Positions 1,579 through 54,830 of a stretch of 64,000 nt of DNA are shown in pieces (position 1 is the stretch's first letter; each line of letters opens with the position of its first letter). The notes under the pieces were generated by a model. That model saw only the letters and a list, made by a program, of their open reading frames with translations. It was not told the origin of the DNA and did no database searches. This DNA comes from a virus. Lineage: Duplodnaviria > Heunggongvirae > Uroviricota > Caudoviricetes. The stretch is from positions 42,433 through 106,432 of the IMG/VR virus record IMGVR_UViG_3300025319_000008, one strand, 5' to 3'. Both the position numbers and the translations under genes were made by a program.

Positions 1579-1580
1579 TA

Positions 1581-2744: not shown

Positions 2745-2756
2745 AAAACAAACTAA

Positions 2757-3302: not shown

Positions 3303-3341
3303 TTATTTTTTGTTTATCTTTGTTTTTTAATAACAATAAAG

Positions 3342-4076: not shown

Positions 4077-4077
4077 T

Positions 4078-4413
4078 ATGGAATGTATTCCAGAAAATAA
4101 AATCATAGAGTATCCTATTAAAAAATTTGATAATCTTAATAGGGTAATTTATATAGATTGGAATGGAGTTGAGCGTTGCATTAATGTTTTTTGGGGTGAC
4201 ACAAATAAAATTAAAATAAAATATAGACTTTGGCATAGCGAAACAGAAGTTGAAGCTTATGACGAAAAAGGAAACGTTATTTTTCAAAGCTCTGCCGGAG
4301 TTATAGTTATAAAATTTCCAAGATTAAAAATTAAAGATGGAAAATTACTTTATACTGTTGAAAGAAAAAAAATAAAAGAATGGTTGAAAAAACTTGATTG
4401 TAATAAAAATTAA
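4078..4413 (+). CDS. hypothetical protein
   Basis: 111-aa ORF starting 2 nt after the previous stop. Confidence 0.4.
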   Translation: MECIPENKIIEYPIKKFDNLNRVIYIDWNGVERCINVFWGDTNKIKIKYRLWHSETEVEAYDEKGNVIFQSSAGVIVIKFPRLKIKDGKLLYTVERKKIKEWLKKLDCNKN

Positions 4414-4498
4414 TAATAAATTTGTAGAATAATTAAATTCATACGGAACTATAGATTTTATAATTTTTCATACTATTTATCTTCAAAAGATAAAAATT

Positions 4499-5857
4499 AT
4501 GAAAAAAAGCAAAAAAACAGAAGTCTGTTGTGCAGTGTGTAAAAAAGTAGAATTTGTATACTTAAGTAGGGCAAAAAAATATAACACTTGTTCTGTTGAA
4601 TGTATGGGTGAATATAATAAATCACCTAATAATGTAAAATGTTTTTCTTGTGGAAAAGAATTTCACTTACAACCAAAAAGAACAAAAAGACTTACTGATG
4701 AAAAACATATAACTTGCTCAATGAAATGTGCTGGTGAATTAAAAAAAATTATTTACCTCGGTAGGAATAATCCAAATACAAAATATATGATTGATGATAA
4801 TTTTTTTAAAAAAGTAGATACGGAACAAAAAGCGTATTTGCTTGGATGGATAGCTAGTGATGGAAATTTAGCTCCAAATGGTACAATAAATATTTCTATT
4901 CATAAAAAAGACAGGAAGTGCTTAGAGGAATTAAGAGATATAATTTGTAAAGATATTCCAATTTCTAATGGAAAAAAAAGTATGATAACGCTTAGAATTT
5001 GTTCAACTACAATGAATAATGATATTTGCTCACTTTTAAAAATAAAACCTGAAAAAAAATCAGACATAGTTGATTTTCCAAATTTAGAAAATGACGATTT
5101 AAAATGGGCATTTATAAGAGGTTTTTTTGACGGAGATGGGTGTGTATCTTTATTTACTGAAACACACGCTGCTCCTAGTTGTAATATAGCTACTAATTCA
5201 AAATTAATGCGTAAAGGAATTATTGAATTTGTTAATATACCAAATTGGACTAACGATGTAGACAAAATAGAATGGTATGGAAATAATGCTCTTGATTTTT
5301 TATCTAAAATATATGACAATAGCTCTATTAAATTACAAAGAAAGTATGAAAGATATTTAGACATTTCTGCTTGGGTTCCATCTATATCTTATAGCAGACA
5401 TTTTAAAACTGAACATTTTAAATTCTCAAAATCTATAAAAGAAGCTGTATCACCATCTAAAACAAGAGCTTCAGATTCTGGATATGATTTGGTTATACTT
5501 AAAAAGATTAAAACCATTGGAGAAGTTGAATTTTATGACACCGGAATAAAAGTTAAACCTACATTTGGATATTATTTTAATTTAGTACCAAGAAGTTCAA
5601 TAACAAAGACTGGATATATGTTAGCAAATTCAATTGGCGTTATTGATAGAACATATCACGGTAGTATAATAGTCCCTTTAATAAAAATTGATAAAAATGC
5701 ACCTGACATTCAATTGCCAGCAAAAATAGTTCAAATCATACCAACTTCCATAATTCATGTAGAGTTTAAGGAAGTTGAAGAACTTGAAGAAACACAGCGT
5801 GCAGAAGGGGGATTTGGAAGTACAGATTTGAAAAAAAATAAAAATAGTTCAATATAA
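4499..5857 (+). CDS. dut: fusion protein: N-terminal C4 zinc ribbons, a double-motif LAGLIDADG homing endonuclease module, then a complete C-terminal dUTPase
   Basis: CxxC pairs at the N-terminus; LLGWIASDGNL and FIRGFFDGDGCV (LAGLIDADG motifs ~100 aa apart); dUTPase motifs I-V in the last ~150 aa (SDSGYDL, VPRSS, GVIDRTYHGSI, AKIVQI, RAEGGFGSTD). Confidence 0.75.
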   Translation: MKKSKKTEVCCAVCKKVEFVYLSRAKKYNTCSVECMGEYNKSPNNVKCFSCGKEFHLQPKRTKRLTDEKHITCSMKCAGELKKIIYLGRNNPNTKYMIDDNFFKKVDTEQKAYLLGWIASDGNLAPNGTINISIHKKDRKCLEELRDIICKDIPISNGKKSMITLRICSTTMNNDICSLLKIKPEKKSDIVDFPNLENDDLKWAFIRGFFDGDGCVSLFTETHAAPSCNIATNSKLMRKGIIEFVNIPNWTNDVDKIEWYGNNALDFLSKIYDNSSIKLQRKYERYLDISAWVPSISYSRHFKTEHFKFSKSIKEAVSPSKTRASDSGYDLVILKKIKTIGEVEFYDTGIKVKPTFGYYFNLVPRSSITKTGYMLANSIGVIDRTYHGSIIVPLIKIDKNAPDIQLPAKIVQIIPTSIIHVEFKEVEELEETQRAEGGFGSTDLKKNKNSSI

Positions 5858-5964: not shown

Positions 5965-7995
5965 ATGCAAGACGAATTAAATAATGATGAAAATCAAGGT
6001 CCGGTAAATCCGAATGAAACATCAACTCGAAAAAAAGACAAGTCAAAAACTCCTATGTTGGATAATTTTGGCAAGGATTTGACCAAAATGGCATTAGAAG
6101 GAAAACTTGAGCCTGTAATCGGAAGAGAAAAAGAAATCGACCGGGTGATTCAGATTTTGAGTAGGAAAAAGAAGAATAACCCCGTCCTTATTGGGTTTCC
6201 CGGTGTTGGAAAAACTTGTATTGCTGAAGGTTTGGCAATGAAAATAGCTCACAAAAATGTTAGTAGGATTTTGCATGGAAAGAGAATTATTTCTCTTGAT
6301 CTTTCTTTGATTGTTGCAGGTACTAAATATCGCGGACAATTTGAAGAAAGAATGAAAACTCTCATTGAAGAAATTGAACAAAATGAAGATGTAATTGTCT
6401 TTATGGATGAATTACATACAATCATTGGAGCGGGTAATGCTGCCGGAAGTTTAGATGCTTCTAATATGATTAAGCCAGCTCTTGCTAGAGGACAAATGCA
6501 ACTCATAGGTGCCACAACAATAGACGAGTATAAAAAATCTATAGAAAAAGATGGTGCTATGGAACGTCGTTTTCAAAAAGTTATGGTTGATGAACCATCA
6601 GTAGACCAAACAAAAGAAATTATCAATCAATCTAAAGGGATGTATGAAGAATTCCATGGAGTTGTATTTGAAAATGCTGCTATTAATGCGGTTGTTGATT
6701 TGGCTGATAGATATATTACTGGACGATATTTTCCAGATAAGGCATTTGATGTGCTGGATGAAGCTGGTTCAAGAATACATATTGACAATTTAAATACTCC
6801 TCCAGAAATTATTCAAATTGAACTTGAAATCGAGGAAACAAAAACACAAAAAGATATTTTTGTTAAAACTCAACAATACGAACAAGCTGCAAAAATTAGA
6901 GATAAAGAAAAAGAATTAAGCAGAAATCTTGAGTTAAGGAAAGCGGAATGGGAAAAAACTGAAAAAAACAATCGTATTCCAGTTACAGAAGCTGATGTAG
7001 CTAAAGTTATTTCAAAAATGATTGGAGTACCAGTAACAAAATTAACTGAAGATGAAGGAGTAAAGCTTATTAATATGCCGGAAGAACTTAAAAAACGTGT
7101 TGTTGGTCAAGATAATGCGGTTGTTAAAGTAGCAGAGGCTATTCAGCGAAACAGAGCTGGACTTAATAATCCAAATAAACCAATTGCATCATTTATATTT
7201 TTAGGCTCCACCGGTGTAGGTAAAACGGAATTAGCAAAAGCTTTAGCTCAATATCTTTTTAATGATGAAGATGCTATGATTAAAATTGATATGAGTGAAT
7301 ATACAGAGCCTCATAATATAAGTAGATTGACTGGAAGTCCTCCAGGATATGTGGATAGCTCCGAAGGTGGTCAGCTCACAGAGAAGGTTCGCAACAAACC
7401 ATATTCAGTTATTTTGTTTGATGAAATCGAAAAAGCTCATCCACTTGTACATAATATTTTCCTTCAAATACTTGATGAGGGTAAACTTACAAGTGGACTC
7501 GGAATAACTGTGAACTTTAAAAATACTATAATTATTATGACTTCCAATGTTGGAACTAAAGAAATGTCTGAATATAAATCTGTTGGATTTGGTCTTGGAG
7601 AACGTAAGAGTGTTGATATTGAAGAAATTGTTAAAAAAGCTCTTAAGGGAAAATTTAAACCAGAATTTTTAAATCGCCTCGATGAGCAAGTTATTTTTAA
7701 TCTTTTAACAAAAGAAAACATAAATGAAATAACCGGTATTCATATTAATAATTTTTCAAAATTAGTAGAGAAACAAGGTTATAAACTTGAAGTTAGTAAA
7801 TCTATGAGAGAAATCATTGCAAAAGACGGTTTTAGTGAAGAATTTGGCGCAAGGCCAATTTTGAGGATGATAACAAAATATATACAGACACCGATTTCTA
7901 AGGATTTACTTTTAAAAAAATTCACAGCAGGCGACACAATATATGTTGACTGGGACAAAAAAAAAGAAGAAGTAAAAGTTACTTCTAAAAAGTAA
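5965..7995 (+). CDS. Clp/Hsp100 family ATPase with two AAA+ modules (ClpC/ClpA-like, short N-domain)
   Basis: Walker A GFPGVGKT and GSTGVGKTE; sensor and arginine-finger regions; overall ClpA/ClpC architecture; 676 aa. Confidence 0.9.
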   Translation: MQDELNNDENQGPVNPNETSTRKKDKSKTPMLDNFGKDLTKMALEGKLEPVIGREKEIDRVIQILSRKKKNNPVLIGFPGVGKTCIAEGLAMKIAHKNVSRILHGKRIISLDLSLIVAGTKYRGQFEERMKTLIEEIEQNEDVIVFMDELHTIIGAGNAAGSLDASNMIKPALARGQMQLIGATTIDEYKKSIEKDGAMERRFQKVMVDEPSVDQTKEIINQSKGMYEEFHGVVFENAAINAVVDLADRYITGRYFPDKAFDVLDEAGSRIHIDNLNTPPEIIQIELEIEETKTQKDIFVKTQQYEQAAKIRDKEKELSRNLELRKAEWEKTEKNNRIPVTEADVAKVISKMIGVPVTKLTEDEGVKLINMPEELKKRVVGQDNAVVKVAEAIQRNRAGLNNPNKPIASFIFLGSTGVGKTELAKALAQYLFNDEDAMIKIDMSEYTEPHNISRLTGSPPGYVDSSEGGQLTEKVRNKPYSVILFDEIEKAHPLVHNIFLQILDEGKLTSGLGITVNFKNTIIIMTSNVGTKEMSEYKSVGFGLGERKSVDIEEIVKKALKGKFKPEFLNRLDEQVIFNLLTKENINEITGIHINNFSKLVEKQGYKLEVSKSMREIIAKDGFSEEFGARPILRMITKYIQTPISKDLLLKKFTAGDTIYVDWDKKKEEVKVTSKK

Positions 7996-8027: not shown

Positions 8028-8967
8028 ATGCAAAAAAACTTTTACTTCCATTCCAATATTCTGAATAAGTTCTTTCTATGTGATATGGTAAAAAATTTGG
8101 TAAATTATTTTTTTCCTTTTCTTCTATATATTTAGAACGATTAGATATGTCTGGCCTATTGTCTTTTAACCATTTTTTTGCTTCATAAAAATTTAAAAAT
8201 TCTTTTTTTGAATATTTGTTATTATAATTATAAAGAAAATCTTCAATACTTATCCATGTATTTTTTGTTTTATATGTTCTTTCAGGATTGTATGGTAAAA
8301 AATATATTTTTTCACTTTGAATATATAATCTATAGTCTTGTAGTGTTTCTAAATTAGGATTATTATTCTTAAGAAAAATTTTTGCATCATTATAATTTAA
8401 CATTGTTTTCTTGACAGAGTTAGAGTTATAGCCTTTTGATAATTTATTTAAAAAATCTTCCCACCCAATCCATCCTTTATTTTTAAAAACATCTTTTGGG
8501 CATTTCGGTATATGAGTTGGTAATTTATATTTTATTTTTTTGAAATCACTTTCAAATATTAAATCTGGATATTTTTCGTTAATCCATTTTTTACATTCTT
8601 CATAAGTTATGAAATATTTAATTTTACCTCCGCCACGAGGTCCAAATTGTCCACCAATTTGTAGATTGGTTAGTTTGCAACCTTTTTCTTTGTAAAAATT
8701 TATCCAAAATCTTTCTCTTTCTTCCCAGTTATGTTCGTTAACTATTTCAATTATTTTAATATCTATTTTTCCGCCTTTAACTATTATAGACTGCATCCAC
8801 TTATCTTTATAGGTTTTTTTAAACTTTGAAATATATTTATGTTCACTTAATCGTCCTTTTATTGTTCTTTCTGTTTTTCCTATATATTTTATTTCCTCTG
8901 GTGTATTAGCTTCGAATAATCCATATATTATAATTTTTTTCATTTTACTGATTTTAGCCTCGTTCAT
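8026..8967 (-). CDS. freestanding GIY-YIG homing endonuclease with C-terminal repeat region
   Basis: N-terminal IIIYGLFEANTPEEIKYIGKTERTIKGRLSEH (GIY...YIG...R...E); sits on the opposite strand between the Clp ATPase and clpP. Confidence 0.7.
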   Translation of the reverse strand: MNEAKISKMKKIIIYGLFEANTPEEIKYIGKTERTIKGRLSEHKYISKFKKTYKDKWMQSIIVKGGKIDIKIIEIVNEHNWEERERFWINFYKEKGCKLTNLQIGGQFGPRGGGKIKYFITYEECKKWINEKYPDLIFESDFKKIKYKLPTHIPKCPKDVFKNKGWIGWEDFLNKLSKGYNSNSVKKTMLNYNDAKIFLKNNNPNLETLQDYRLYIQSEKIYFLPYNPERTYKTKNTWISIEDFLYNYNNKYSKKEFLNFYEAKKWLKDNRPDISNRSKYIEEKEKNNLPNFLPYHIERTYSEYWNGSKSFFA

Positions 8968-9102
8968 ACTTTTGAGGTAATATTATGTAAATATGATAAT
9001 TATTTAAGAAAATGAAATAGTTATTATTTTATTAAGATTTATTTTATTTTACAATAAAAAATATTACATTTGTCAACACATAAACAAACTAAAAAATATA
9101 AT

Positions 9103-9792
9103 ATGCAAAACATTATTGAAAAATTTGAAATAGCAGGAAAAAGCGCCAACATAAATAAAAAGCTAATCTCCAGTTCGACCAACAAATTAATTGACCATTC
9201 TATTAAAAATCTATCTCCAAGTGTAATAGAAGAATCAAGTTCTGGACAATTAATATCATATGATGTGTATTCTCGTCTTTTAAAAGATAGAATAATCTAT
9301 TTTTGCCATCCGGTAACTACTGAAACTTCTAATATTGCAATAGCACAAATATTGTTTTTAGAAATGACTGAAGGTAAAAAAGATATTACATTTTATATCA
9401 TGAGTCCGGGCGGGGAAATTGACTCAGGAAGCGCAATTTTAGACACATTCGAGCTTGTTTCGTGTGATATTAAAACGGTTGGAATGGGAGTTGTTGCAAG
9501 TATGGGTACAATGCTTTTATCAAGTGGGACGAAAGGTAAAAGATATGCATTACCAAGTTCAAGAATAATGATGCACGAATTAGCATCTGGATTTGAAGGA
9601 AAAATGAAAGATTTAAAAGTAAGTTATGAACAATGTCAAATAATGGAAAAAAGATTGTATGAAAAACTTTCTAAAAATACAGGACAGGATTATGAAACAA
9701 TATTCAATAAATGTCAAAAAGATTATTGGGTTTCAGCAGAGCAAGCAGTTGGAGAAGGATTAATTGACGAAGTTCTAATAAAAAGAAAATAA
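9103..9792 (+). CDS. clpP: ATP-dependent Clp protease proteolytic subunit
   Basis: YSRLLKDRIIYF; catalytic Ser in GVVASMGT and His in IMMHELASG; ATG at 9103 preferred over the TTG ORF start at 9070. Confidence 0.9.
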   Translation: MQNIIEKFEIAGKSANINKKLISSSTNKLIDHSIKNLSPSVIEESSSGQLISYDVYSRLLKDRIIYFCHPVTTETSNIAIAQILFLEMTEGKKDITFYIMSPGGEIDSGSAILDTFELVSCDIKTVGMGVVASMGTMLLSSGTKGKRYALPSSRIMMHELASGFEGKMKDLKVSYEQCQIMEKRLYEKLSKNTGQDYETIFNKCQKDYWVSAEQAVGEGLIDEVLIKRK

Positions 9793-9828
9793 GAGGTAGG
9801 GAGCAAAAATAACCAAATCTCAAGTAAG

Positions 9829-9958: not shown

Positions 9959-10885
9959 ATGAGAAAGAAATGGACAGAAAAAGAAATTGATTTTTTAATA
10001 GAAAATGTAAAAAAAATCACATTAAATGAAATAGCAGAAAAATTAGAAAAAAAAATAAGTGTAGTTAAATCTAAATTATATAAATTAGGTATATGCACTA
10101 TTAAATGGTCAAAAGATGAGGATGATTTATTACGTGAAAATTTTCCACTTAAACCAACAAGATTATTAATTGAATTATTTAAAAACAGAACTAGGAGTTC
10201 TCTTCTAAATAGAGCAACATTTTTAGGATTGAAGAGAAATAATGAAGCTAGATTTGTTTATAAAAAATATAAATACAATGTTAATCATAATTTTTTTGAT
10301 GATTTTTCACTTGAAAATTGTTATTGGGCTGGTTTTATATCAGCTGATGGATGTGTAAAACCTATTAATTCTTTATTAAGTATAAAATTAAGTAGTAAAG
10401 ATGTTGAGCATTTAGAAGTTTTTAAAAAAACAATAAATTCTAATGCTCCAATATTCATTAGAGATAACAACTCTTTTGGTACTGAACATAAATCAGCAAC
10501 TATAGACATATATTCAAAAAATATAATAAATAAATTAAAAATAAATTTTTTAATTACTAATAAAAAAACATTTACAGCAGTGCCTCCAACAATAAAAAAT
10601 TCAAATCAAAAAATAGCATTTATAATTGGGTTATTAGATGGGGATGGTTCAATATATAAAATTAATAATAATTTAAGAATAACATTTTTAGGCACATTAA
10701 AAATGCTTGAATGGATTAAAGAAACATTAAAAACAACATTATTTGTTGATGTGAATCAAAAAATACATCAAAAAGGTAAAATATATTCTTTTGCTATATC
10801 TAACAAACCAGTATTAAGTTTAATAGAGTGGGTTAAAAAAAATGAAATATATTATTTAAATAGAAAAATTGGAAAATATGTCTGA
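9959..10885 (+). CDS. freestanding LAGLIDADG homing endonuclease with an N-terminal HTH-like DNA-binding region
   Basis: YWAGFISADGCV and IGLLDGDGSI motifs ~100 aa apart; inserted between clpP and dnaJ, overlapping the dnaJ start. Confidence 0.75.
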   Translation: MRKKWTEKEIDFLIENVKKITLNEIAEKLEKKISVVKSKLYKLGICTIKWSKDEDDLLRENFPLKPTRLLIELFKNRTRSSLLNRATFLGLKRNNEARFVYKKYKYNVNHNFFDDFSLENCYWAGFISADGCVKPINSLLSIKLSSKDVEHLEVFKKTINSNAPIFIRDNNSFGTEHKSATIDIYSKNIINKLKINFLITNKKTFTAVPPTIKNSNQKIAFIIGLLDGDGSIYKINNNLRITFLGTLKMLEWIKETLKTTLFVDVNQKIHQKGKIYSFAISNKPVLSLIEWVKKNEIYYLNRKIGKYV

Positions 10886-12011
10886 AAAAGAAAGTCTCTA
10901 TAATATTCTTGAAGTAGACAAAACAGCATCTCAAGAAGAAATAAAACAATCTTATAGAAAATTAGTAAAAAAACATCACCCAGATAAGGGTGGGGATGAA
11001 AATACTTTTAAAAAAATTTCTAACGCATATGATATTTTATCCAACCCAGAAAAGAAAGCTAAATATGAAAACGATGGCATGTTTAATGATGGTGGTTTTG
11101 GATTTAATCCTCACAGTATGGCGGATGAATTATTTAGAAGGCATGCTGAATCATTTGGGTTTAGAGGTGGTAGTAGTAGACATGCTCAACAAACAAAAAC
11201 TAGAAGAGGTGGAGATTTAAAAATAAGAATTTCATTAACTATTCATGAATTAATTACAGGTGCACATAAAAAAGTAAAATTACAAAGAGAAATAAATTGT
11301 CCAGACTGTTCTGGAACTGGTGCTAAAAATAAAGAATCGATAGTAAAATGCAGTGTATGTGATGGTACTGGTATTGTTACAATAAGACAGAATACGCAAA
11401 TGGGAATGATGATTCAACAATACACTTGTCAGCATTGTGGTGGAGAAGGAAAAGAAATTAAAGAAAAATGCAATTCCTGTAAAGGACAAGGGATGATTTC
11501 GAATAGTGATGAAGTAGAATTTGATATTCCAGCCGGTGCAGTAGAAGGAATAAATTTAAACATTAATAACGTTGGAAACGAAGCAAGAGGCGGAGGGAAT
11601 AACGGAAGTCTTATTATTGAAATAACAGAGATTGAACATCCTATTTTTAAAAGAGAAGGCAATAATATTTTAACTGATGTTTTTATTAGTTATTATGATG
11701 CTGTGATTGGGAATGATTCTTTAGAAATAAATACTGTTGATGGAAACGTTAAAGTCAAAATAGAGCCAGGAACAGAGTCTGGCAAAATCCTACGTTTAAA
11801 AGGTAAAGGAATTCCTAATATAAATAATCCTTCTCAAAGAGGCGATCAAATGGTTTATGTAAATATTTTTGTTCCAAAGACATTAACAGAAGAAGAAAGG
11901 AAATCTATTACAGAACTTAAGAATGTTAAATCAGCTGAGCCGGATAGTGAAAAAACACAACATTTAAAAGGTGTTTATTCTCGCATTAGAGAATATGATG
12001 AATTGCATTAA
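10878..12011 (+). CDS. dnaJ: chaperone DnaJ (J domain plus four CxxCxGxG zinc-finger repeats plus C-terminal domain)
   Basis: YNILEV...HHPDKGG (HPD motif); CPDCSGTG, CSVCDGTG, CQHCGGEG, CNSCKGQG; ATG at 10878 (the ORF track start at 10869 is TTG). Confidence 0.9.
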   Translation: MSEKESLYNILEVDKTASQEEIKQSYRKLVKKHHPDKGGDENTFKKISNAYDILSNPEKKAKYENDGMFNDGGFGFNPHSMADELFRRHAESFGFRGGSSRHAQQTKTRRGGDLKIRISLTIHELITGAHKKVKLQREINCPDCSGTGAKNKESIVKCSVCDGTGIVTIRQNTQMGMMIQQYTCQHCGGEGKEIKEKCNSCKGQGMISNSDEVEFDIPAGAVEGINLNINNVGNEARGGGNNGSLIIEITEIEHPIFKREGNNILTDVFISYYDAVIGNDSLEINTVDGNVKVKIEPGTESGKILRLKGKGIPNINNPSQRGDQMVYVNIFVPKTLTEEERKSITELKNVKSAEPDSEKTQHLKGVYSRIREYDELH

Positions 12012-18491: not shown

Positions 18492-19646
18492 ATGTCAAAA
18501 AAATTAACAACAGAAGAGTTTATTGAAAGAGCTAAAATTATACATGTAAACAGAATAACTAATGAATCAAAATATGATTACAGTTTAGTTGAATATAAAA
18601 ATAGCAAAACTAAGATTAAAATAATTTGTAAAGAACATGGTGTTTTTGAGCAAACGCCAAATGATCATTTATCTGGTTGTGGATGTGTTGAATGTTCTGG
18701 ACTCAAAAAATTAACAACCGAAGAATTTATTGAAAAGTCTAACAAAGTTCATAGTAATATATATGATTATTCATTAGTAGAATATTTTAACAATAATACA
18801 AAAGTTAAAATAATATGTAATAATCATGGAGTTTTTGAACAAATTCCAGCAAGTCATTTGGGTGGGCATGGATGTGGTAAGTGTGGCGGAACCGCATTAA
18901 GAAACACGATAGAGTTTATTGAAAAATCTATAATTATTTATGGATATACATATAATTATGAGTTAGTTGAATATGTTAATTCTATAATTAAAGTTAAGAT
19001 AATTTGTAAGAAACATGGTGTTTTTGAGCAATCACCAGATAAACATTTAGCTGGACACCAATGTCCTTTTTGCGGATTTGAAGAAAGTTCCTTAAAAAGA
19101 GCTAATACTTCTGAATATTTTATTGAAAAATCGAAAATTATACACATAAATGAAAAAACATGTGAACCAAAATACGATTATTCAAAAGTTAACTACGTTC
19201 AAAACAAAACTAAGGTAATAGTAATTTGTCCATTACATGGAGATTTTCAAATAACTCCAAGCTCACATTTGAATGGATATGGATGTAAAAAATGTAATTT
19301 TTCAAAAATATCAAAGGGAGAAAAAGGTATAATTGAATTTTTAAAAAAGAATAACATCGAATTTATACATCAACATAAATTTAATGATTGCATAGGAATA
19401 TCAAATAAATTACCATTTGATTTTTATTTACCAAAATACAATACTTGTATAGAATTTGATGGGAGACAGCATTTTGAATCAGTCAAAAAATTTGGAGGAG
19501 AAAAAAATTTTTTGGATATACAAAGAACTGATAACATAAAAAATAAATATTGTTTAAATAACAATATAAAACTTATTAGAATTTCATATTTAAATTTGAA
19601 AAATATAAATGAAATTTTAGAGAAAGAATTCAACTGTATTGAGTAA
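18492..19646 (+). CDS. zinc-ribbon repeat protein with a C-terminal PD-(D/E)XK (Vsr/DUF559-like) endonuclease domain
   Basis: Five ~60-aa repeats of KYDYSLVEY...K.KIICK.HGVFEQ.P..HL.G.GC..C; C-terminal LPFDFYLPKYNTCIEFDGRQHF; paralog at 34194..35321. Confidence 0.65.
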   Translation: MSKKLTTEEFIERAKIIHVNRITNESKYDYSLVEYKNSKTKIKIICKEHGVFEQTPNDHLSGCGCVECSGLKKLTTEEFIEKSNKVHSNIYDYSLVEYFNNNTKVKIICNNHGVFEQIPASHLGGHGCGKCGGTALRNTIEFIEKSIIIYGYTYNYELVEYVNSIIKVKIICKKHGVFEQSPDKHLAGHQCPFCGFEESSLKRANTSEYFIEKSKIIHINEKTCEPKYDYSKVNYVQNKTKVIVICPLHGDFQITPSSHLNGYGCKKCNFSKISKGEKGIIEFLKKNNIEFIHQHKFNDCIGISNKLPFDFYLPKYNTCIEFDGRQHFESVKKFGGEKNFLDIQRTDNIKNKYCLNNNIKLIRISYLNLKNINEILEKEFNCIE

Positions 19647-19649
19647 TGT

Positions 19650-20093
19650 TTAGTTTTTAGTTCCTGGTTCTACGCTTAAATGCGAAAGAGTTATTATATT
19701 ATTTCTCTTTTTAATAAATTCTAATTTATTTAACATCCATTCTAAGGATTTTAAATGAGTGTTTTCTGTTGGTTTTAATAATGCTCTGTGTTGTTCTGTT
19801 GATTCCATAATTTCGCCGTCAAAGGTATATTCCTCATTATTTTCATACCAAATTTTTTCTTTTGAGTCATATAAAAATAAAGGGAACTGTTGGCCATAAC
19901 TTACTGTGATGTAGCTTTTGTCTGGAAAAGATTCACCCCAGCAATGGCTACCTATAAAATTCTCTTTATTGCGAACTTTTTCTAACCCATCCTCATTAGT
20001 AAGTCTTTCTTCGTCAATCATCATTTCATCCATTATACCACATTCAAACAAATGTTTTCTTATGGCCTTTCTTATTTTATTTTCGTTAATCAT
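19650..20093 (-). CDS. hypothetical protein
   Basis: 147-aa ORF. Confidence 0.4.
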   Translation of the reverse strand: MINENKIRKAIRKHLFECGIMDEMMIDEERLTNEDGLEKVRNKENFIGSHCWGESFPDKSYITVSYGQQFPLFLYDSKEKIWYENNEEYTFDGEIMESTEQHRALLKPTENTHLKSLEWMLNKLEFIKKRNNIITLSHLSVEPGTKN

Positions 20094-21787
20094 TTTTTTA
20101 ATTCTTTTAATATTCGTATGTTAACACGTTTCATTATTTCATTTACAATAAAAGATTCAGTAAGTGATTGGTCATCCGGACCTAAATCTTCTATATTTTC
20201 AGGTTCTTCTTCTTTTTCTTCTGGTTCTACTTTGAAAAGATATTTATCAGAAGGTATTGATACTTCTTTGCCGGCATTATCAATTATAATAAAATTATCT
20301 AATCCTTGAGGTTCAAAAAATTCTTTCGGCTCTATTCTTTGTATTGTATATTCTTTTTTGCTTGAAAGATTTTTATATTCTTCTGGATTTATTTTCATGA
20401 GTACAGGAAGATTGGATATTTTAACTTTTTCTCCAACTTGTATTCTTTTTGGAAATGCAATATCTCCTAATGTATCCGAATCAACTCCTTCTTCTTTCTC
20501 TGTTTCTAATGGAACCCATTCCCCTTTTGGATCTCCTGTTGCTATGTCAATTCCTGTTTGCTTAAAATATTCTAAAGGATTTTCTTTTTCTCCTTCTTCT
20601 CCAACTCCTTGTACTGAAAAAGCGTATTTATTATTGGTGAAATTTACTTTTATTCCTGTTTTGTCTTTAATGTATTTTTGAAAAGAGCCATTTTGAACGT
20701 AAAATGTTATAACTTCTTCCATTCTTTTTTTTATTTGTCTCACTGTTCCGGCTGGTTTTCCTAAAATATCAGATATTTCAGATAAAATATGTCCTTGAAA
20801 TAATAATTTTGCTACTTCTAAAAATGAAGGATTTATACCACCGTGTTTTATATTTGATTGTAAACGACTTATAATAAAATTTTGCATTACATCTGATAAT
20901 TCTTTTGCAGCTTCTTTTTGAGAAGTGCTTTTTTGTCCTTCTTCTCCAGTGATTCTATCACTTTTTGTTTGGTCAACATCTTCATCTGAATCTCCAAGTG
21001 GCTCATCTAATGAGCTTCCTTTTAATCCTCCACTTGATTGACCTAATGCTGTTTTTGCATACTTAGATTGAACTTGTGATTTCGCTCTTGAAGTAGCATT
21101 AAATATTATATTAGAAGGAAGTTGTCCTCCTCTACTTGGATTAAAGTTTTCTAAAGAATAATCAAAAGCATCTTCAATAGCACTTGAAACTATTGCTCGT
21201 AAATTCTCACCATCAATTGTCTTTCTGCCGGTTTTTTCAACAAAATTATAAATACCAGCATTTTTAGCAACAATTCTTGAAATTAATGAAGGTCTATTTC
21301 CTCCACTACCTTTTTCAAAAGAAGTAAATTCATCTGGTTGAACCATTGCTATAAATAATACATCTCTAATATTTTTCTTTTCATTTTCAAGAGTGCTATC
21401 ATCTTTATATAATGAAGCTAATACTGTTGTAATGAAATTAAACTGTTTAATCTTATGTCCTTCAGACATTTTGTTATAATTGAAATTATTTCCAAGTCTT
21501 CCAGTTGTTTTTGCTTTTTCTATTAATTCATATAAATCAACTAATTCATCTTCACTAAAATTTTTTGATAATTCATTAATTTTTGCACTTATATTAGAGA
21601 AATCCAAATCCAAATTAGACTCTTCTGGGTTCATCGTATCTACTTGGCCAACGTCTTCTTTGCTGTCTAATTCAGAACTGTCATCAAATTCTTCATCATT
21701 AGCAATTTCTTCTTCTTTCAAGATTTTAAAAGTTCTACTTATGATGAACTTTTTTAAACTTTCAAATGTTAATTTTTTGTTTTCCAT
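20090..21787 (-). CDS. large sigma-70-like protein with a region 4 HTH and a C-terminal extension
   Basis: INPSFLEVAKLLFQGHILSEISDILGKPAGTVRQIKKRMEEV matches sigma-70 region 4.2 (TLEEIG..LGVTRERVRQIE-like); its C-terminal module is paralogous to the upstream gene. Confidence 0.55.
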   Translation of the reverse strand: MENKKLTFESLKKFIISRTFKILKEEEIANDEEFDDSSELDSKEDVGQVDTMNPEESNLDLDFSNISAKINELSKNFSEDELVDLYELIEKAKTTGRLGNNFNYNKMSEGHKIKQFNFITTVLASLYKDDSTLENEKKNIRDVLFIAMVQPDEFTSFEKGSGGNRPSLISRIVAKNAGIYNFVEKTGRKTIDGENLRAIVSSAIEDAFDYSLENFNPSRGGQLPSNIIFNATSRAKSQVQSKYAKTALGQSSGGLKGSSLDEPLGDSDEDVDQTKSDRITGEEGQKSTSQKEAAKELSDVMQNFIISRLQSNIKHGGINPSFLEVAKLLFQGHILSEISDILGKPAGTVRQIKKRMEEVITFYVQNGSFQKYIKDKTGIKVNFTNNKYAFSVQGVGEEGEKENPLEYFKQTGIDIATGDPKGEWVPLETEKEEGVDSDTLGDIAFPKRIQVGEKVKISNLPVLMKINPEEYKNLSSKKEYTIQRIEPKEFFEPQGLDNFIIIDNAGKEVSIPSDKYLFKVEPEEKEEEPENIEDLGPDDQSLTESFIVNEIMKRVNIRILKELKK

Positions 21788-21788
21788 T

Positions 21789-24197
21789 TTATTTATTTGT
21801 TTTTTTAAATCTTTCTACCATAAGCTCTCTTACAACTTTTCTTATATGATTTTCTGATAATTGTGATGACATTTCATAATTTTTAAGTAAATCATTTAAT
21901 AAATCTCTATCTTTCTTTATTGCTGGATTCTCTAACCCTTCAAATCCGAAAAACTTTCTTAATCCCAATCTTAAAGAATTTATAAATTCTAATGTTTTGT
22001 CTGTTAATGATTTTTTTTCTTCTGCAGACTCTGCTGTTTTATATAGAGCTTGTTTTGTTTCTGGATTAAATAAATTTTGAGGCAATTCTATATTTTTTGC
22101 AAAAGCAACTTTAGAAAGTTGATCAATAATTTTTTCTGTATTTCCAACTAATTTCCCACCTGTATCCCATACATAACTAAACGGTACCTCTCTTATTTTT
22201 TGATACTTATTTATAAGTCCACTATCCTTGTATGGGAGAGCAATTTTCCCATTTTCTTTTTCTACTTTTCCACCTTTGTGAGTATAAGGATTATAAGCGT
22301 TTACTATTTTTGGTGTACCATCTACATTTCTAAAATAAACTGTTCTTGTGTATTTTGGAACCATTCTACCATATTGCAACATAAGTCTTAGTGCTTCGAT
22401 TAAAGCATCTTTGTATTTCGTACCTAATTCTTGTGGTAGTGCCGATGTTTTTGAAGTTGATTTAACATATCTATTAGAAAGATTTATTTCTTTTCCAGCA
22501 TCATCAAGTATAGTGTATATATAAACCGTATTCCCGTTTTTATCGTTTTTGCCTGTTGCTTCTTTTTTTGTTACTGTGTATTCTTTTTTCGAATTAAGAT
22601 TTTGAAATATTTCTGGACTTTTTGTTTTCTCCGGGTCTAATAATTCATTAACCCTTTCTAATCTAACTTTCTCTCCAATTTTTAAATCAGTACTTAACAT
22701 TTCAATAGAAATTTCATCAAGAATGTTATCAATTTCAGTTTTTGCTAAACGCATTGCTTCGCTAACAGGAACTCCTTCATACATGGCTTTTTCAGCTATG
22801 GAGCCTTCTCCTGGTTCGTATATTGCTTTAGTTAAATCCTCCGGCTTGTCCTTTGAAACGCTTTTATAAAATTCATTTGGATTTTTCAGAAATCTAGCAC
22901 TTAGAGGAGAAATTTTTCCATCTTCTTCTTTTGCTCCAAAAAGCCCTATAGCATCCATTGCATCCTTAAATGTATATCTGAAAAAGGGTTTTTTTACTAT
23001 TTCACCATCTTTAGTTTTAACTTTAAATGTGAATGGACTAATTGTAACTTCATAATTTCCTTCAATAGCTTTTTCAGGATTTAATTTAGAATCAACAACA
23101 AGAGGAGCAGTTTCTGCAACAAGTCTTCGTTCAACCTCTGTTCTATCCAATACGTAGTCACTTATGCTTCTTAATTGGTCAATTACTTTATGTTTAACAA
23201 CTTGAATAAACCAAGCTCCATAATTATTATATTTTTCCTGAGAATATTGTTTTTCTTTTGTTTGGTCTATAGCATGGTTTATACCATTTTCTGCAAATAC
23301 AATGAATTGACTATCCTTTGGATTTTTTTTCCTTTTAAGTGTTTGTGCAAGTATTGGTATTACAGCTTTTCCATAAAAATCTCTAATAATATGTTCAGCA
23401 TTAGCTATTACTAAATTTTTATATGGCCAGTTACCTAATAAAATCTCTTCTATATCAATATTTTCATCACCATTTGCTGGTAATGGCCTACCTGATAACA
23501 TTCTTTGTAAAAATTCAAGTTGTTGTTTTCCTAAATCTGAAATCCCAACTAATTTTTTGCCATTTTCTTCAAATGTATGATAGCTAATTATGTTTTTATC
23601 TTTTATTTTTGGTTGCCATTTTGCTGATTGTACATTACCACCTTCTTGTCCAAATGTAACGGCGCTTCTTTTTGTTTTTTTATCTTTTTCTATAATTGCA
23701 TCAATTTCTTCTTGGCTCATTCCAGCTTTTTTAAGACGACTAATTTCAGCTGGACTAATAATTGGAGTTACTAATCTTCCATATTCTCTTGAAGCTCCTG
23801 GTAGTTTTTGTATAGGCTTCTTTTCGATAACAGTTCCTTCTACACCACCTTCTTCTTCTGGCCTTGCACCAAGTGTTTTTGGTTTGTATTCTCCTGAAAG
23901 TTTTAAATTCGCAGCTTCATATTGATTTATATTATTCAATACCATGGATGCTTTCATGTCTTTCGTCAGTACTCCTTCGGATTTCCCTTTTATTTCTAAA
24001 GCTCTTCCTTCATCACCCATTAAATCTCCAATATCTCCAAAAATATCATCATCATCTTCTTTTAAAAGTTTTTTTGGCTCTGTTTTTTTTGAGTTTATAA
24101 TGGTAGAATCGCTTTCATTAATGGTGTTTTGTGAAACTCCAGCTAATTTTGACATTCTTTGCAACTCATGAAGAAGATTTTCGTTTAATAAGGTCAT
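21789..24197 (-). CDS. large sigma-70-like protein with region 2 signature, acidic N-terminus and long C-terminus
   Basis: ENGINHAIDQTKEKQYSQEKYNNYGAWFIQVVKHKVIDQLRS aligns with sigma-70 region 2.2-2.4 (EGNIGLMKAVDKF...YATWWIRQAITRSIADQAR); shares the KEYT..DDAGKE[IV] module with 20090..21787. Confidence 0.5.
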   Translation of the reverse strand: MTLLNENLLHELQRMSKLAGVSQNTINESDSTIINSKKTEPKKLLKEDDDDIFGDIGDLMGDEGRALEIKGKSEGVLTKDMKASMVLNNINQYEAANLKLSGEYKPKTLGARPEEEGGVEGTVIEKKPIQKLPGASREYGRLVTPIISPAEISRLKKAGMSQEEIDAIIEKDKKTKRSAVTFGQEGGNVQSAKWQPKIKDKNIISYHTFEENGKKLVGISDLGKQQLEFLQRMLSGRPLPANGDENIDIEEILLGNWPYKNLVIANAEHIIRDFYGKAVIPILAQTLKRKKNPKDSQFIVFAENGINHAIDQTKEKQYSQEKYNNYGAWFIQVVKHKVIDQLRSISDYVLDRTEVERRLVAETAPLVVDSKLNPEKAIEGNYEVTISPFTFKVKTKDGEIVKKPFFRYTFKDAMDAIGLFGAKEEDGKISPLSARFLKNPNEFYKSVSKDKPEDLTKAIYEPGEGSIAEKAMYEGVPVSEAMRLAKTEIDNILDEISIEMLSTDLKIGEKVRLERVNELLDPEKTKSPEIFQNLNSKKEYTVTKKEATGKNDKNGNTVYIYTILDDAGKEINLSNRYVKSTSKTSALPQELGTKYKDALIEALRLMLQYGRMVPKYTRTVYFRNVDGTPKIVNAYNPYTHKGGKVEKENGKIALPYKDSGLINKYQKIREVPFSYVWDTGGKLVGNTEKIIDQLSKVAFAKNIELPQNLFNPETKQALYKTAESAEEKKSLTDKTLEFINSLRLGLRKFFGFEGLENPAIKKDRDLLNDLLKNYEMSSQLSENHIRKVVRELMVERFKKTNK

Positions 24198-24320
24198 AGC
24201 ATTAGTTTTACAACTAAATAGATAGAAAAAGATAAAAAACTTGATAAAATTTTTTGGAATTAATAAAAAAATTTATAGATTTGCAGTGATTAAAAACAAA
24301 CAAAAAAATAAAATTAAAAC

Positions 24321-26378
24321 ATGGTAATGAAACAACATTCATTTTTGGTAGATATCGGCAAAACTATGGTCGATACAAATAAAATAAGCTCAGAAGGAAA
24401 AGACAGTCAAAGAATGTACTGCCATTGCGGTAATAAAAAAGAGCTAAAAAGTAAAGCGAGAAGATTGCTTGTAAAAAAACACGACACTACTGTTGAAGAC
24501 AAGCATAGTATTGAAACAATTAAATGTGATAAGTGCGGAAGCGTTTATGACAGTAAAAATCGTTTATTTCTTATTATTCCAGATGAAGATGAAATTTATA
24601 AAGTTTCATTTTTAGTAGAAGAAAAAGGAAAAACAATAACTCTTTTAAGACAAAAAACATTTGTTAGATACGATTCTTCTACTGATAAATTAAATGATAA
24701 TATTGTCAGAACCGATTCAATTAAATTTGATAGAAGCAAAAACAAAACTGAAATTTTCTTAGAAAAGCCATTACTTGATAAAATATCAGTAAATAATAAG
24801 CAGAATGATGTGAATAACATTACGGAAGAAGTAGGTCTTTCAAAAATAGGAAGATTAGAACATTTTTTCCAATTTTATGATTTTGCTTCTTATGGTGGTC
24901 TTATAAATATATTCAATTTTTTTAACAAAATTGATGTTGTAGTAACTGACCTTGACGATATTAAGAAATTGATTCCTCAAATAAGTTATGCTTATAATAA
25001 TCATGATGTTTTTGAAAAAACAGATGAAATAACCGGAGAGTCAATAACTTATAATAAAGTTGATAGCGGTTTTGGAGACGGAAAAAAAGAAGAGAAAAAA
25101 TTAAATATAGGTGGGTATTTATCCAGATATGTTGAATTGTCTAAAATTTTTCTTTGTGTATCTGACTTCCAGAGTATTTCAACAATATTACTTACTAAAG
25201 GACAAGTGTTTTTTAAAGAATTTATCCACAGTAAAAACATTTTATCTTCTCAAGTTTATGAATTGTTTGAAGCAACATCTCCTACTAAAATATTGGAAAT
25301 TTCTATGAATTGCGATATTAACGGTATGTTAAAAGGAAGTGGAGATAATGATACTAAGGAAGTTGCTAAAAAAGTCGTTAAAATATCAAAAACCATAGAA
25401 GATAGTCCTAACTATTTAAAGGTTAGTCCTTTGATTTATAAACACATAAGCACTCCACAGGATATGGAAATTTTGCTTAGTATATATCGTAAAAAATATA
25501 TTTCCAAAACTGATATTGAAACTTTGTTTCAAAGTTATGATACTGAGCGTATTTATAAATTCTACAGAAATTTAGAAAAACAAAGAATTCAAGATAATGC
25601 CAGTTTTACAATCAAAAACATTAAACACATCTTAGATAGAAATATAGATGATGTTGTAAAAGGTGGCAATTCTGATTATTTGCATTTGTATACAGATACT
25701 ATTAACTCAATGAGGCTGTTGGAGCTTTCTGATAATTATATTTATCGTATTAAAAGTAATGTCGAGTTAAAAACTATACATGATGACCTTGCAGCGAGAT
25801 ATGGAGCTATTAAAGATGCTAAAAAAGCAGAATTTTATAAAAAAGCAGCTAAGGAATTGTCAAACATAAATACAATTGTTGGCGATGTTGAATTGACAGT
25901 TATTCCAACTCTTGAGGACTTAAATAAAGAAGGTATGCTTATGAATCATTGTATTTATACATACCTTGATCGAATTGTTAATAGAGATTATATGGCTGTC
26001 CATGTACAACATATAATTTCAAATGAAAGAGCAACTTTGGGTTTATATCGTAAAAATGGAGGCCTTGAATTTGATCAGTTAAAAGGTTATCGTAACTCAA
26101 GAGCCTCAAGAGAGTTAATTGAAGGAGTACTGGAGTTTATACAAATTAACAAAATACAATCTTCTTCCAGAAACAGTGATTTAACACCTTCTGCCGGAAG
26201 CATAACCAGAATGCATGATTATTTAAGTGACGAAGAAGTCATGAAAATAAGAAAAGAAAGAGAAAAAAAGGAAAATATTGAGATGGAAAAAGCAAAATCA
26301 GAAGGAAAAGAGTATGTTCCTAAGTATTCAAAGTCACATCAAAAAAATAAAAAAGGATTTTTTGGATTATTTGCTTAA
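24321..26378 (+). CDS. large protein with N-terminal zinc ribbons and a C-terminal domain resembling PcfJ-like proteins
   Basis: CHCG...CDKCGS; C-terminal EGMLMNHCIYTYLDRIVNRDYMAVHV...LGLYRKNGGLEF; the PcfJ assignment is from memory of the family and is low confidence. Confidence 0.4.
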   Translation: MVMKQHSFLVDIGKTMVDTNKISSEGKDSQRMYCHCGNKKELKSKARRLLVKKHDTTVEDKHSIETIKCDKCGSVYDSKNRLFLIIPDEDEIYKVSFLVEEKGKTITLLRQKTFVRYDSSTDKLNDNIVRTDSIKFDRSKNKTEIFLEKPLLDKISVNNKQNDVNNITEEVGLSKIGRLEHFFQFYDFASYGGLINIFNFFNKIDVVVTDLDDIKKLIPQISYAYNNHDVFEKTDEITGESITYNKVDSGFGDGKKEEKKLNIGGYLSRYVELSKIFLCVSDFQSISTILLTKGQVFFKEFIHSKNILSSQVYELFEATSPTKILEISMNCDINGMLKGSGDNDTKEVAKKVVKISKTIEDSPNYLKVSPLIYKHISTPQDMEILLSIYRKKYISKTDIETLFQSYDTERIYKFYRNLEKQRIQDNASFTIKNIKHILDRNIDDVVKGGNSDYLHLYTDTINSMRLLELSDNYIYRIKSNVELKTIHDDLAARYGAIKDAKKAEFYKKAAKELSNINTIVGDVELTVIPTLEDLNKEGMLMNHCIYTYLDRIVNRDYMAVHVQHIISNERATLGLYRKNGGLEFDQLKGYRNSRASRELIEGVLEFIQINKIQSSSRNSDLTPSAGSITRMHDYLSDEEVMKIRKEREKKENIEMEKAKSEGKEYVPKYSKSHQKNKKGFFGLFA

Positions 26379-34053: not shown

Positions 34054-34197
34054 ATGGCTACGAAAACTAAAACATTCACATTACCAGAAGAAATTTTGGA
34101 AAAACTTGCTTCATATAGCGAGGAAAGCTTAATTCCTCAATCGGCATTAATTGCAAAGTTATTAAAAGAATTTTTTGAAAAAGAAAATAAAAAATGA
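34054..34197 (+). CDS. small ribbon-helix-helix DNA-binding protein
   Basis: 47-aa ORF not in the ORF track; KTFTLPEEILEKLASY...SALIAKLLKEFF; its stop overlaps the nuclease start (ATGA). Confidence 0.45.
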   Translation: MATKTKTFTLPEEILEKLASYSEESLIPQSALIAKLLKEFFEKENKK

Positions 34198-35321
34198 GTG
34201 GGAAAGCTATAAGTATTGAAAAATTTATTTTTAATGCAAAACAAATTCATGGAGAAAGGTACGATTATTCAAAATTTGAATATGTTAATTCCTCAGTAAA
34301 ATCCACAATTATATGTGAGAAACATGGCGAATTTTTACAATCTCCAAGAAATCACATGAAAGGATATAATTGTAAGAAATGTATGTACGAAGGAGAAAGA
34401 ACATTACCAAGTAAACATACTTTAGAATCATTTATTATTAAATCAAATGAAGTTCATGATAATAAATACGATTATTCAAAAGTGGTATATAAAAATAATA
34501 AACAACCAATTATTATAATTTGTCCAGAGCATGGAGAATTTAATCAAAGACCTGATAGTCATTTAAGTGGAAGGGGTTGTATTTATTGTTCAGGAACGTA
34601 TCAATATGCAAAAGAAGATTTTATAAAAAAATCTAATGAAAAACATAATAATAAATACGATTATTCTGAAGTTTTATACACAAAAAATGATAATAAAGTA
34701 ACAATAATTTGTAATAAACATGGAAAGTTCAGTCAATTAGCCAAAGACCATTTAAGAGGACGCGGATGTGACATATGTAGTGGTGGATATGTTGGAACTA
34801 AAGAAATATTTTTGGCAAAATCTTTTGAAGTTCATGGAAATACTTATAATTATGATAATGTAAAATATGTAAATAACCAAACAAAAGTAGATATAATTTG
34901 TAATAAACATGGTATTTTCAAACAAAGGCCAGCAATGCATTTATTTGGAAATGGTTGTCCAAAGTGTTCAAATTTTTCAAAAGGAGAAATTAAAATTACT
35001 AAAATTTTAGAAGAAAAAAATATAATATTTACATATCAAAAAACTTTTGATGATTGTAAAAATGTTTTTAAATTACCTTTCGATTTTTATTTACCAGATT
35101 ATAATACTTGTGTAGAATTTGATGGAGCTCAACATTTTAAAGCTTTTAAATACTTTGGTGGTGAAAAAACATTTAAAGCAAGGCAACTAAACGACCAAAT
35201 AAAAAACGAATACTGCAAAAACAATAACATTCCATTATTAAGAATTCCTTACTGGGACTTTAAGAACATTGAGACTATATTGACTGATTATTTAAAGTCA
35301 ATCCTTATCAACTCTAATTAA
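34194..35321 (+). CDS. zinc-ribbon repeat protein with a C-terminal PD-(D/E)XK (Vsr/DUF559-like) endonuclease domain; paralog of 18492..19646
   Basis: Five repeats (C..HG.F.Q.P..H..G.GC..C) plus LPFDFYLPDYNTCVEFDGAQHF. Confidence 0.65.
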   Translation: MSGKAISIEKFIFNAKQIHGERYDYSKFEYVNSSVKSTIICEKHGEFLQSPRNHMKGYNCKKCMYEGERTLPSKHTLESFIIKSNEVHDNKYDYSKVVYKNNKQPIIIICPEHGEFNQRPDSHLSGRGCIYCSGTYQYAKEDFIKKSNEKHNNKYDYSEVLYTKNDNKVTIICNKHGKFSQLAKDHLRGRGCDICSGGYVGTKEIFLAKSFEVHGNTYNYDNVKYVNNQTKVDIICNKHGIFKQRPAMHLFGNGCPKCSNFSKGEIKITKILEEKNIIFTYQKTFDDCKNVFKLPFDFYLPDYNTCVEFDGAQHFKAFKYFGGEKTFKARQLNDQIKNEYCKNNNIPLLRIPYWDFKNIETILTDYLKSILINSN

Positions 35322-39632: not shown

Positions 39633-39740
39633 AATATTAATGTTTTATAAATTAAACGAAAAAGTTTATTGTTTGTTATATTTATAATTTTAACAAATGT
39701 AGGGAGGAAAATTTGAATTAAAAACACCTCCCTACAATGA

Positions 39741-48072: not shown

Positions 48073-48171
48073 TGTATTTAATTAAACGAAGATAATAAAA
48101 TTTTGTTATTAATTGTTTGAAATGTAAGAAAAATATGTTTTATTTACAGAATCAATAAATTAATAGTGTAA

Positions 48172-51569: not shown

Positions 51570-51692
51570 TATTTAAACGAAAAACATGTTAAAATGTTTA
51601 AATCTTCTCGATTAATACAATTCTCTCAATCTTAGTAAATTCAAAAAACTGATTTCTGAATTTTTCTTGAGCTTTTTCAAATTCTTCTCTTG

Positions 51693-54787: not shown

Positions 54788-54830
54788 ATTATATTAAACG
54801 ATAAGATTGTTTGAATGTTGCTAAAATTAA

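Follow-up and report, generated by a model that had tools for sequence, protein, structure and literature searches.

In Bacillus phage SPO1 two adjacent gene products, gp33 and gp34, are both needed for late-promoter specificity on the host RNA polymerase. Within the extracytoplasmic function (ECF) sigma factors, the ECF41/42 groups carry fused C-terminal regulatory extensions. In the T4 late system, which comprises gp55, the co-activator gp33 and the gp45 clamp, a sigma2-only phage protein acts in transcription together with a second protein. In SigO-RsoA the sigma activity is distributed over two co-transcribed polypeptides (PMC7826278), with sigma2 and sigma4 on separate chains, neither of which is complete. 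Jumbo phages that lack an RNA polymerase of their own typically capture the host enzyme via phage sigma factors (PMC7824862, PMC13282480), and gp55/gp33-type factors are carried by phages of this kind (PMC7824862). This capture of the host enzyme by huge phages without their own RNA polymerase is largely unstudied. Here we analyse a locus of three genes in a 64,000-nt stretch of phage DNA (IMG/VR record IMGVR_UViG_3300025319_000008, positions 42,433 to 106,432), which we call the window throughout. The genes encode proteins of 802 amino acids (aa; A), 565 aa (B) and 147 aa (gene 3). Together they form a conserved and previously undescribed module, probably a three-component sigma, of a huge-phage-like clade.

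By architecture and transitive homology B is predicted to be an architecturally complete, very divergent factor of the sigma-70 family, ECF-like in type. A appears from its sequence to be a larger, paralog-derived protein in which a sigma2 domain is joined to beta-rich domains, including an SH3-like barrel.

Like the ECF (group 4) sigma factors, as represented by TIGR02937 and Escherichia coli RpoE, B carries sigma2, a linker and a sigma4 helix-turn-helix (HTH) in the same order and without a recognisable sigma3 domain. It differs from them in being 2.5-3 times as long, in its N-terminal helical domain of ~190 aa, in its C-terminal extension, which in this genome holds an inserted SH3-like module, and in scores that fall below the family thresholds. 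It is also always accompanied by A, which has sigma2 alone, and by the small gene 3 product. The sequence-only reading of the locus, which this analysis followed up, had assigned regions 2 and 4 to separate proteins in the manner of T4 gp55 and gp33. That division does not hold, as B contains sigma2, an acidic linker and sigma4 in canonical order. B would be a full sigma factor, equipped with both a sigma2 and a sigma4 HTH of the canonical kind, rather than a gp33-like flap binder, and the module is not known to depend on a clamp. Compared to gp55 and gp33 both proteins are several-fold larger, and A is not a detectable homolog of gp55 because it has no PHROG match. Since B carries both domains, the A/B pair is not a split sigma of the SigO-RsoA or gp55/gp33 type; where SigO-RsoA consists of two incomplete chains, the module here combines a complete B with the additional sigma2 of A. 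The sequence-only reading had named the presence of both regions in each protein as the mark of ordinary divergent sigma factors; we found both regions in B and only region 2 in A. SPO1 gp33 and gp34 are small (~100 and ~200 aa), unlike A and B, and SPO1 gp33 is not known to be a sigma2 paralog. The fusions of gene 3 to a sigma copy that we found in two relatives (see below) resemble the in-cis regulatory domains of the ECF41/42 type, whereas gene 3 is separate in the window.

Domain architecture of A and B

Both large open reading frames (ORFs) are real, and the TAAAATG junction between them was confirmed (AAA TAA A ATG; Table 1). Taken together with the ATGA overlap between B and gene 3, this junction implies a translationally coupled operon of three genes.

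From the N- to the C-terminus B is composed of a clade-specific helical domain, sigma2, the acidic linker, sigma4 and a C-terminal extension. In the match to TIGR02937, residues 194-356 of B cover positions 26-157 of the 165-position profile, i.e. from region 2.2 through region 4.2. With hhalign the B-family profile (B residues 194-365) matched E. coli RpoE 44-186 with a probability of 91.5% and an E-value of 8.5e-7. The linker falls between the sigma2 and sigma4 matches of this alignment, which reaches RpoE residue 186, and the sigma4 domain shares 'GTVR' with RpoE. The sequence-only reading had recognised no clear region 2 in B, but both comparisons place region 2.2-2.4 at B 194-246. The region 4 HTH had been recognised correctly: the stretch quoted for it corresponds to residues 322-359, and residues 331-355 match the Pfam family Sigma70_r4 with an E-value of 1.1e-3 and 18.8 bits, below the gathering score of 24.1. 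The same kind of match below the gathering score was found in 6 of 8 close relatives of B. For TIGR02937 the score of B was 14.3 bits compared to a cutoff of 42.9. Because of these sub-threshold scores the assignment of B to the sigma family leans on transitive and profile evidence.

The close B family consisted of 7 clusters at 90% identity, and an exhaustive profile search extended it to 49 representatives, 43 of which were aligned. Of the 8 close members 6 matched TIGR02937, as did 30 of the 43 aligned sequences from the extended family (E <= 0.01), among which the best E-value was 4.4e-19. Further matches in the extended family were to RpoD, RpoS, FliA and ECF models and to the Pfam families Sigma70_r4, Sigma70_r4_2 and Sigma70_r2; the closest cellular matches of B are RpoE and the ECF-type models. 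Most of the 49 representatives also matched profile positions ~55-190, which correspond to the N-terminal domain.

The AlphaFold2 (AF2) model of B had a mean predicted local distance difference test (pLDDT) score of 65, with confident helical blocks at residues 68-250 and 288-377 and values <50 at residues 244-287. When this model was compared with the PDB by Foldseek, ~45 of the 50 best matches were sigma chains. The first ones were full-length sigmaA, and the alignments to sigmaA spanned ~350-390 columns with E-values from 3e-3. Profile-versus-sequence searches with the A or B family matched no sigma proteins among the PDB sequences, and B had 0 matches in PHROGs. Within the sigma2 domain of the B family positions A207, A231 and S241 are invariant. 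The aromatics and the 'ID..R' signature have been lost in the window protein and its closest relatives, and distant members retain F..W/L...ID.WRK. In the linker (SLDEPLGDSDED...) residues S259, D261, P263, L264 and G265 are invariant. A likeness of the linker to 'SMETPIGDDEDS' of RpoD was judged by eye only.

The homologs of A fell into 17 clusters, and none of these clusters was assigned a Pfam domain. At the level of single sequences, hidden Markov models (HMMs) detected Sigma70_r2 in 2 of 16 members of the family, and several ECF models matched at A 301-345. Profile comparison with hhalign, using the A family without the fusion proteins against the extended sigma family, placed A 302-349 on B 200-246 with E-values of 5e-5 and 2e-6. 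Once five distant A homologs had been added, the match to sigma2 reached an E-value of 3.3e-8 and a probability of 95%. When the A profile was aligned locally to E. coli RpoD over all its 802 columns, the best match fell exactly on RpoD 398-450 (regions 2.2-2.4), which reproduces the alignment that had been proposed for the region-2-like segment at residues 303-344. We ran the sigma-family HMM over the 337 ORFs of the window, and B ranked first and A second. Comparison of the A sigma2 domain with known sigma factors gave figures of 6.7 for SigK, 6.6 for AlgU, 6.4 for SigW, 6.3 for SigA-sigma2, 6.1 for RpoS-sigma2 (90 of 96 residues), 6.1 for SigB and 6.0 for sigmaE region 2. A has also kept an ECF-like 2.3/2.4 signature, YGAWFIQVVKHKVIDQLR, with W329, F330, I339, D340 and L342 invariant.

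The absence of a recognisable region 4 from A was borne out: comparison with the sigma4 of the family gave E-values of 0.12-0.22, and no HTH family was found in A via Pfam or NCBIfam. Measured against the sigma-70 family, B has sigma2 and the C-terminal sigma4 HTH and stays under the curated score thresholds; A has the sigma2 fold and no sigma4 with its region 4.2 HTH, and is for this reason not a sigma by family definition. We considered a hidden sigma4 in the C-terminus of A, where 'LSENHIRKVVRELM' resembles a recognition helix, and rejected it on the E-values just given. Weak Foldseek rows of A to beta'/Rpb1 were dismissed (probability <= 0.35, TM-score <= 0.07). We also rejected by eye the 'DDAGKE' turn as a polymerase metal-binding motif, as it is without the three aspartates and lies inside the SH3-like barrel. 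No PHROG family was found for A at E <= 0.1, nor any match by tblastn in 50,697 phage records.

The two proteins do share a C-terminal module, as had been noticed: BLASTP gave 35% identity between A 505-578 and B 449-517 (E-value 5e-7), and by HMM the two segments match with an E-value of 1e-12. In the A family the module is carried by close relatives and is missing from the A homologs of the lineages L007, L009, L010 and L011. In the B family the insertion is confined to the window protein and P0023. The proposed paralogy of A and B holds for the sigma2 cores and for the recently copied SH3-like cassette of ~70 aa, and not for the remaining length. An 89-aa ORF at 50338-50604 (-) is a possible third copy of the module, with a weak match (E-value 1e-3).

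Table 1. Positions in the window of the operon, its domains and the adjacent elements.
Feature	Coordinates	Strand	Residues or length	Description
Gene A	21789..24197	-	802 aa	Sigma2-fold domain and beta-rich domains including an SH3-like barrel; no sigma4
A sigma2-like domain (regions 2.1-2.4)	23163..23435	-	~255-345	Segment 303-344 lies at 23166..23291
A SH3/Tudor/KOW-like beta-barrel module	22464..22685	-	505-578	'KEYT...DDAGKE'
A C-terminal amphipathic helix	21807..21857	-		SENHIRKVVRELMVERF; found by regex scan
Gene B	20090..21787	-	565 aa	Predicted complete sigma of the sigma-70 family, divergent and ECF-like; extended at both termini
B N-terminal helical domain	21218..21610	-	~60-190	Family-specific; pLDDT 85-92
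B sigma region 2.2-2.4	21050..21208	-	194-246	Degenerate 2.3/2.4 signature LPSNIIFNATSRAKSQVQSK
B acidic disordered linker	20927..21040	-	250-287	SLDEPLGDSDEDVD...; position of the sigma2-sigma4 linker (region 3.2)
B sigma4 domain	20693..20926	-	288-365	Region 4.2 HTH at residues 331-355 (20723..20797)
Second SH3-like copy	20237..20443	-	449-517	Inserted in the B C-terminal extension
Gene 3	19650..20093	-	147 aa	Conserved third operon member; start overlaps the B stop (ATGA)
CTATTTAGTT	24212..24221	-		Invariant 10-mer ~24 nt ahead of the start codon of A; candidate operon promoter element
PcfJ-like gene	24321..26378			Divergent from the A-B-gene 3 operon

Gene order and fusions in related genomes

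We read the related genomes over ~20 kb each. The order A-B-gene 3 was constant in eight lineages (the window, L001, L002, L006, L007, L009, L010 and L011), and a divergent PcfJ-like gene was located directly upstream of A in 6 of the 8 loci; the contigs of L007 and L009 do not reach or show this flank. Separate genes for A, B and gene 3 were found in the window, in L001 (801, 481 and 155 aa), in L002 (835, 590 and 155 aa) and in L011 (656, 532 and 124 aa). In L006 A and B are fused into a single protein of 1204 aa, followed by a gene 3 of 150 aa; P0033, which is more distant, is an A-B fusion as well. In L007, where A is cut by the contig end and gene 3 encodes 253 aa, the B protein (P0028, B-B', 1011-3722) has two tandem sigma cores, both complete, in a single 903-aa chain. 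In L009 (A 626 aa, B 470 aa) and L010 (A 652 aa, B 502 aa) a second copy of the sigma is joined to gene 3 in single proteins of 580 aa (3955-5697) and 438 aa (8511-9827), respectively; in both, the gene 3 domain is at the C-terminus of the sigma copy. That each adjacent pair is fused somewhere is Rosetta-stone evidence for one physical unit, and the single-ORF A-B fusions agree with the suggestion of the sequence-only reading that A and B are working partners.

We rejected the explanation that the L006 fusion is a gene-calling artefact of stop reassignment: read with code 11 the ORF is free of in-frame stops, and the glutamine at the junction is encoded by CAA. The idea that A is present only where the sigma2 of B is degenerate also failed. 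A precedes B proteins with canonical-looking regions 2.3/2.4 as well (L011/P0038 and P0028), so that the presence of A cannot be put down to a degenerate sigma2 in B.

Gene 3 comes after B in every locus examined and is 59-62% identical to its orthologs in L001 and L002. ECF sigmas usually share their transcript with a cognate regulator, an anti-sigma. Gene 3 has no Pfam or PDB relative, and similarity to known anti-sigmas or to ECF extensions was not detected. The A C-terminus (21807-21857, -), the N-terminus of gene 3 (20040-20093, -) and the N-terminus (577-640, +) of the ORF 577-1578 each carry a short, basic and amphipathic motif, (N/S)E..IRK.(I/V)R..L; the likeness among the three sites is without statistical significance (E-value 0.16). 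B has helices of a similar kind on both sides, and in L006 the fused protein keeps the A C-terminal helix beside the B N-terminal helix. These amphipathic helices may serve as docking helices.

Comparison of A, B and the whole region with 50,697 deposited phage records by blastn and tblastn gave 0 matches, and INPHARED contained no relative. The syntenic homologs are located on contigs of 335,953 bp and ~519 kb, the latter an IMG/VR viral genome (UViG). We found neither a description of the family in the literature nor an annotated family, including in Pfam and PHROGs. The case shows that transitive profile searches, together with the evidence from gene fusions, can resolve weak, sub-threshold sigma signals in phage 'dark matter'.

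Possible modes of action

The unchanging gene order and the fusion of parts in relatives (A-B, B-B' and B-gene 3) make it most likely that the three products assemble into one multi-subunit sigma. We favour, with moderate confidence, an arrangement in which B is the core-binding, promoter-recognising subunit and A and gene 3 have accessory or regulatory functions. B would dock on the core of the host RNA polymerase, through its sigma2 at the beta' clamp helices and through its sigma4 at the beta flap. It would steer the enzyme to phage promoters, and A and gene 3 would belong to the same factor. The formation of a complex, the use of the host RNA polymerase and the parts played by A and gene 3 are what we infer from the observed domain content, synteny and fusions. 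If the three proteins act as one factor, they would extend the architectures of bacterial-type initiation factors beyond single-chain sigmas, SigO-RsoA and T4 gp55/gp33.

Several observations weigh against this arrangement. Both window proteins stay below every curated family threshold, and the Foldseek E-values for B were no better than 3e-3. For A, Foldseek gave no sigma match in the PDB at all. The AF2 models of A and B are mediocre (pLDDT ~65, predicted TM-score ~0.37). The ~20 kb viewed per related genome leave room for a phage-encoded RNA polymerase. Finally, an RNA polymerase has one known docking site for sigma2, and the module brings two sigma2 domains.

A more specific version of the multi-subunit sigma, which we regard as possible but doubtful, is an obligate heterotrimer of A, B and gene 3 that brings two sigma2 folds into one initiation complex. 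The sigma2 of A, with its invariant W-F and 'ID..LR', might then read or melt a single -10-like element, e.g. CTATTTAG or CGTTTAAT, with the degenerate sigma2 of B serving only as an anchor to the beta' clamp and its sigma4 holding the flap. As far as our knowledge and searches go, a sigma with two sigma2 modules would have no precedent, and such a heterotrimer would be a new viral way to reprogram the host RNA polymerase.

The alternative that survives best is a functional division of labour, in which the working sigma2, for binding of the beta' clamp helices and for reading and melting of the -10 element, would come from A, and sigma4 from B, whose own sigma2 would be a degenerate scaffold. 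The 2.3/2.4 signature with its invariant residues is kept in A and lost in the window B and its closest relatives (LPSNIIFNATSRAKSQVQSK), which keeps a split sigma of this modified kind alive, and SigO-RsoA (PMC7826278) and T4 gp55/gp33 (PMC7824862) are precedents for it. However, the sigma2 of B is itself conserved at its three invariant positions and still aligns to RpoE and TIGR02937, and A-type partners also stand beside the B proteins with canonical-looking 2.3/2.4. We consider the division of labour unlikely.

Less likely again is that A is a decoy for host shutoff, whose sigma2 competes with the host sigmaA for the clamp helices or sequesters the core, and that B acts independently. A sigma2 fold without sigma4 would suit such a role, and the window holds other candidate host-takeover functions, e.g. 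the ADP-ribosyltransferase described below. The covalent fusion of A and B in two lineages and their strict co-occurrence and order in eight argue instead for joint action on the same target, and in a fused protein the decoy would be tethered to the active sigma, with both competing for one site.

We give slightly less credit still to the view that A and B are ordinary tandem sigma paralogs with different timing, A as a gp55-like late factor and B as a middle or early one, and that their adjacency reflects duplication. Their sigma2 cores are paralogous, sigma genes are duplication-prone in these genomes (B-B' in L007 and two sigma copies in L009 and L010), and T4 gp55 sets a precedent for a sigma2-only protein that acts as a sigma. 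Translational coupling and in-frame fusions, however, point to the same timing and stoichiometry for both, and A has no detectable relation to the gp55-type PHROGs. Very improbable, finally, is a co-option of sigma-like folds for a DNA transaction other than initiation, for although the module always adjoins PcfJ-like and single-stranded DNA-binding protein (SSB) genes, with an AAA_25 ATPase gene also in the neighbourhood, and every score lies under the curated sigma thresholds, B retains the full sigma2-linker-sigma4 order, its relatives match sigma models strongly, and to our knowledge it would be unprecedented for a complete sigma architecture to act outside RNA polymerase binding.

Candidate promoter elements and genome setting

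The module offers testable promoter candidates for an uncultivated, megaphage-like clade that probably lives on Bacteroidota. Upstream of the operon, CTATTTAGTT is identical in the window, L001, L002 and L006 even though the flanks have diverged. CTATTTA was 13-fold enriched in upstream regions. It was also found at -22 to -26 before other genes, including the orthologs of PrsW (a protease) in L002 and L006, and at -41 in L001. CTATTTA(T/G) lies 13-31 nt ahead of several other genes, with window sites at ~4473, ~28594 and ~56290. The top enriched upstream k-mer was CGTTTAA(T), which was present in 5 of 40 upstream regions (21-34-fold). Sites of the form (T/C)CGTTTAA(T/A) occurred 10-31 nt before start codons at 39652-39659, 48082-48089, 51573-51580 and 54794-54801 (all -) and at ~28664 (+), and the motif is kept before the orthologs of the AAA_25/KaiC-like ATPase in L001 (~4852) and L002 (~4716). 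Over the whole window the CGTTTAA motif was not more frequent than expected by chance (7 compared to 4 expected). Likewise TCGTTTAA and CTATTTAG showed no over-representation across the whole window and are notable only for their upstream concentration and their conservation.

TAnnTTTG is the consensus of the -7 element of the Bacteroidota type. We located it 19-91 nt upstream of 11 co-oriented genes (13 co-oriented sites in total, two of them at ~200 nt), with example sites at 3315, 4417, 9065, 14738, 24276, 26637 and 29629 (+) and at 28598 and 39694 (-). Of 124 sites 17 were intergenic, compared to an intergenic share of the window of 6.6%. The motif precedes the PcfJ-like gene beside the operon, and none was seen ahead of the sigma operon itself. 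This distribution suggests a Bacteroidota host and genes, possibly early ones, that would depend on the host sigma. The CTATTTA-type element is a candidate distinct from this host-type motif, and as judged from the DNA alone the CTATTTA-type, CGTTTAA-type and TAnnTTTG elements are candidates for host-sigma and phage-sigma promoter classes.

The source genome looks AT-rich and huge-phage-like. The G+C content of the window was 26-33% and the coding share ~92%. We found 0 tRNA genes in the window and saw no capsid or terminase gene there. The standard genetic code fits, and signs of recoding were absent. Among the stop codons of 95 long window ORFs TAG was rare (6, compared to 68 TAA and 21 TGA); TAG is also avoided by Lak megaphages across large parts of their genomes (PMC6784885).

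Genes of the large-phage type in the window encode a ClpB-like protein, DnaJ, TopA, a dUTPase, an ART-PolyVal ADP-ribosyltransferase, a Dam methylase, a radical-SAM protein, a GIY-YIG nuclease, HNH-type homing endonucleases, a ClpP-like protease and a dCMP deaminase. The ART-PolyVal domain protein (1581-2744, +; E-value 5e-18) is a candidate enzyme of host takeover and, like Alt and Mod of T4, might target RNA polymerase for modification. A chaperone and protease cluster consists of a ClpB-like double AAA+ ATPase, a ClpP-like protease and a full-length DnaJ (5965-7995, 9103-9792 and 10869-12011, all +) and is syntenic in L001, L006 and L007, too. ORFs of the homing-endonuclease type were abundant (4499-5857, 9959-10885, 18492-19646 and 34194-35321, all +, and 54831-55925, -). 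They include a dUTPase ORF with a LAGLIDADG domain in its N-terminal half, possibly an intein or a fusion, a second LAGLIDADG ORF, one GIY-YIG ORF and two paralogous treble-clef/HNH endonucleases. One of the two treble-clef/HNH genes is convergent with gene 3, from which it is separated by a gap of 3 nt.

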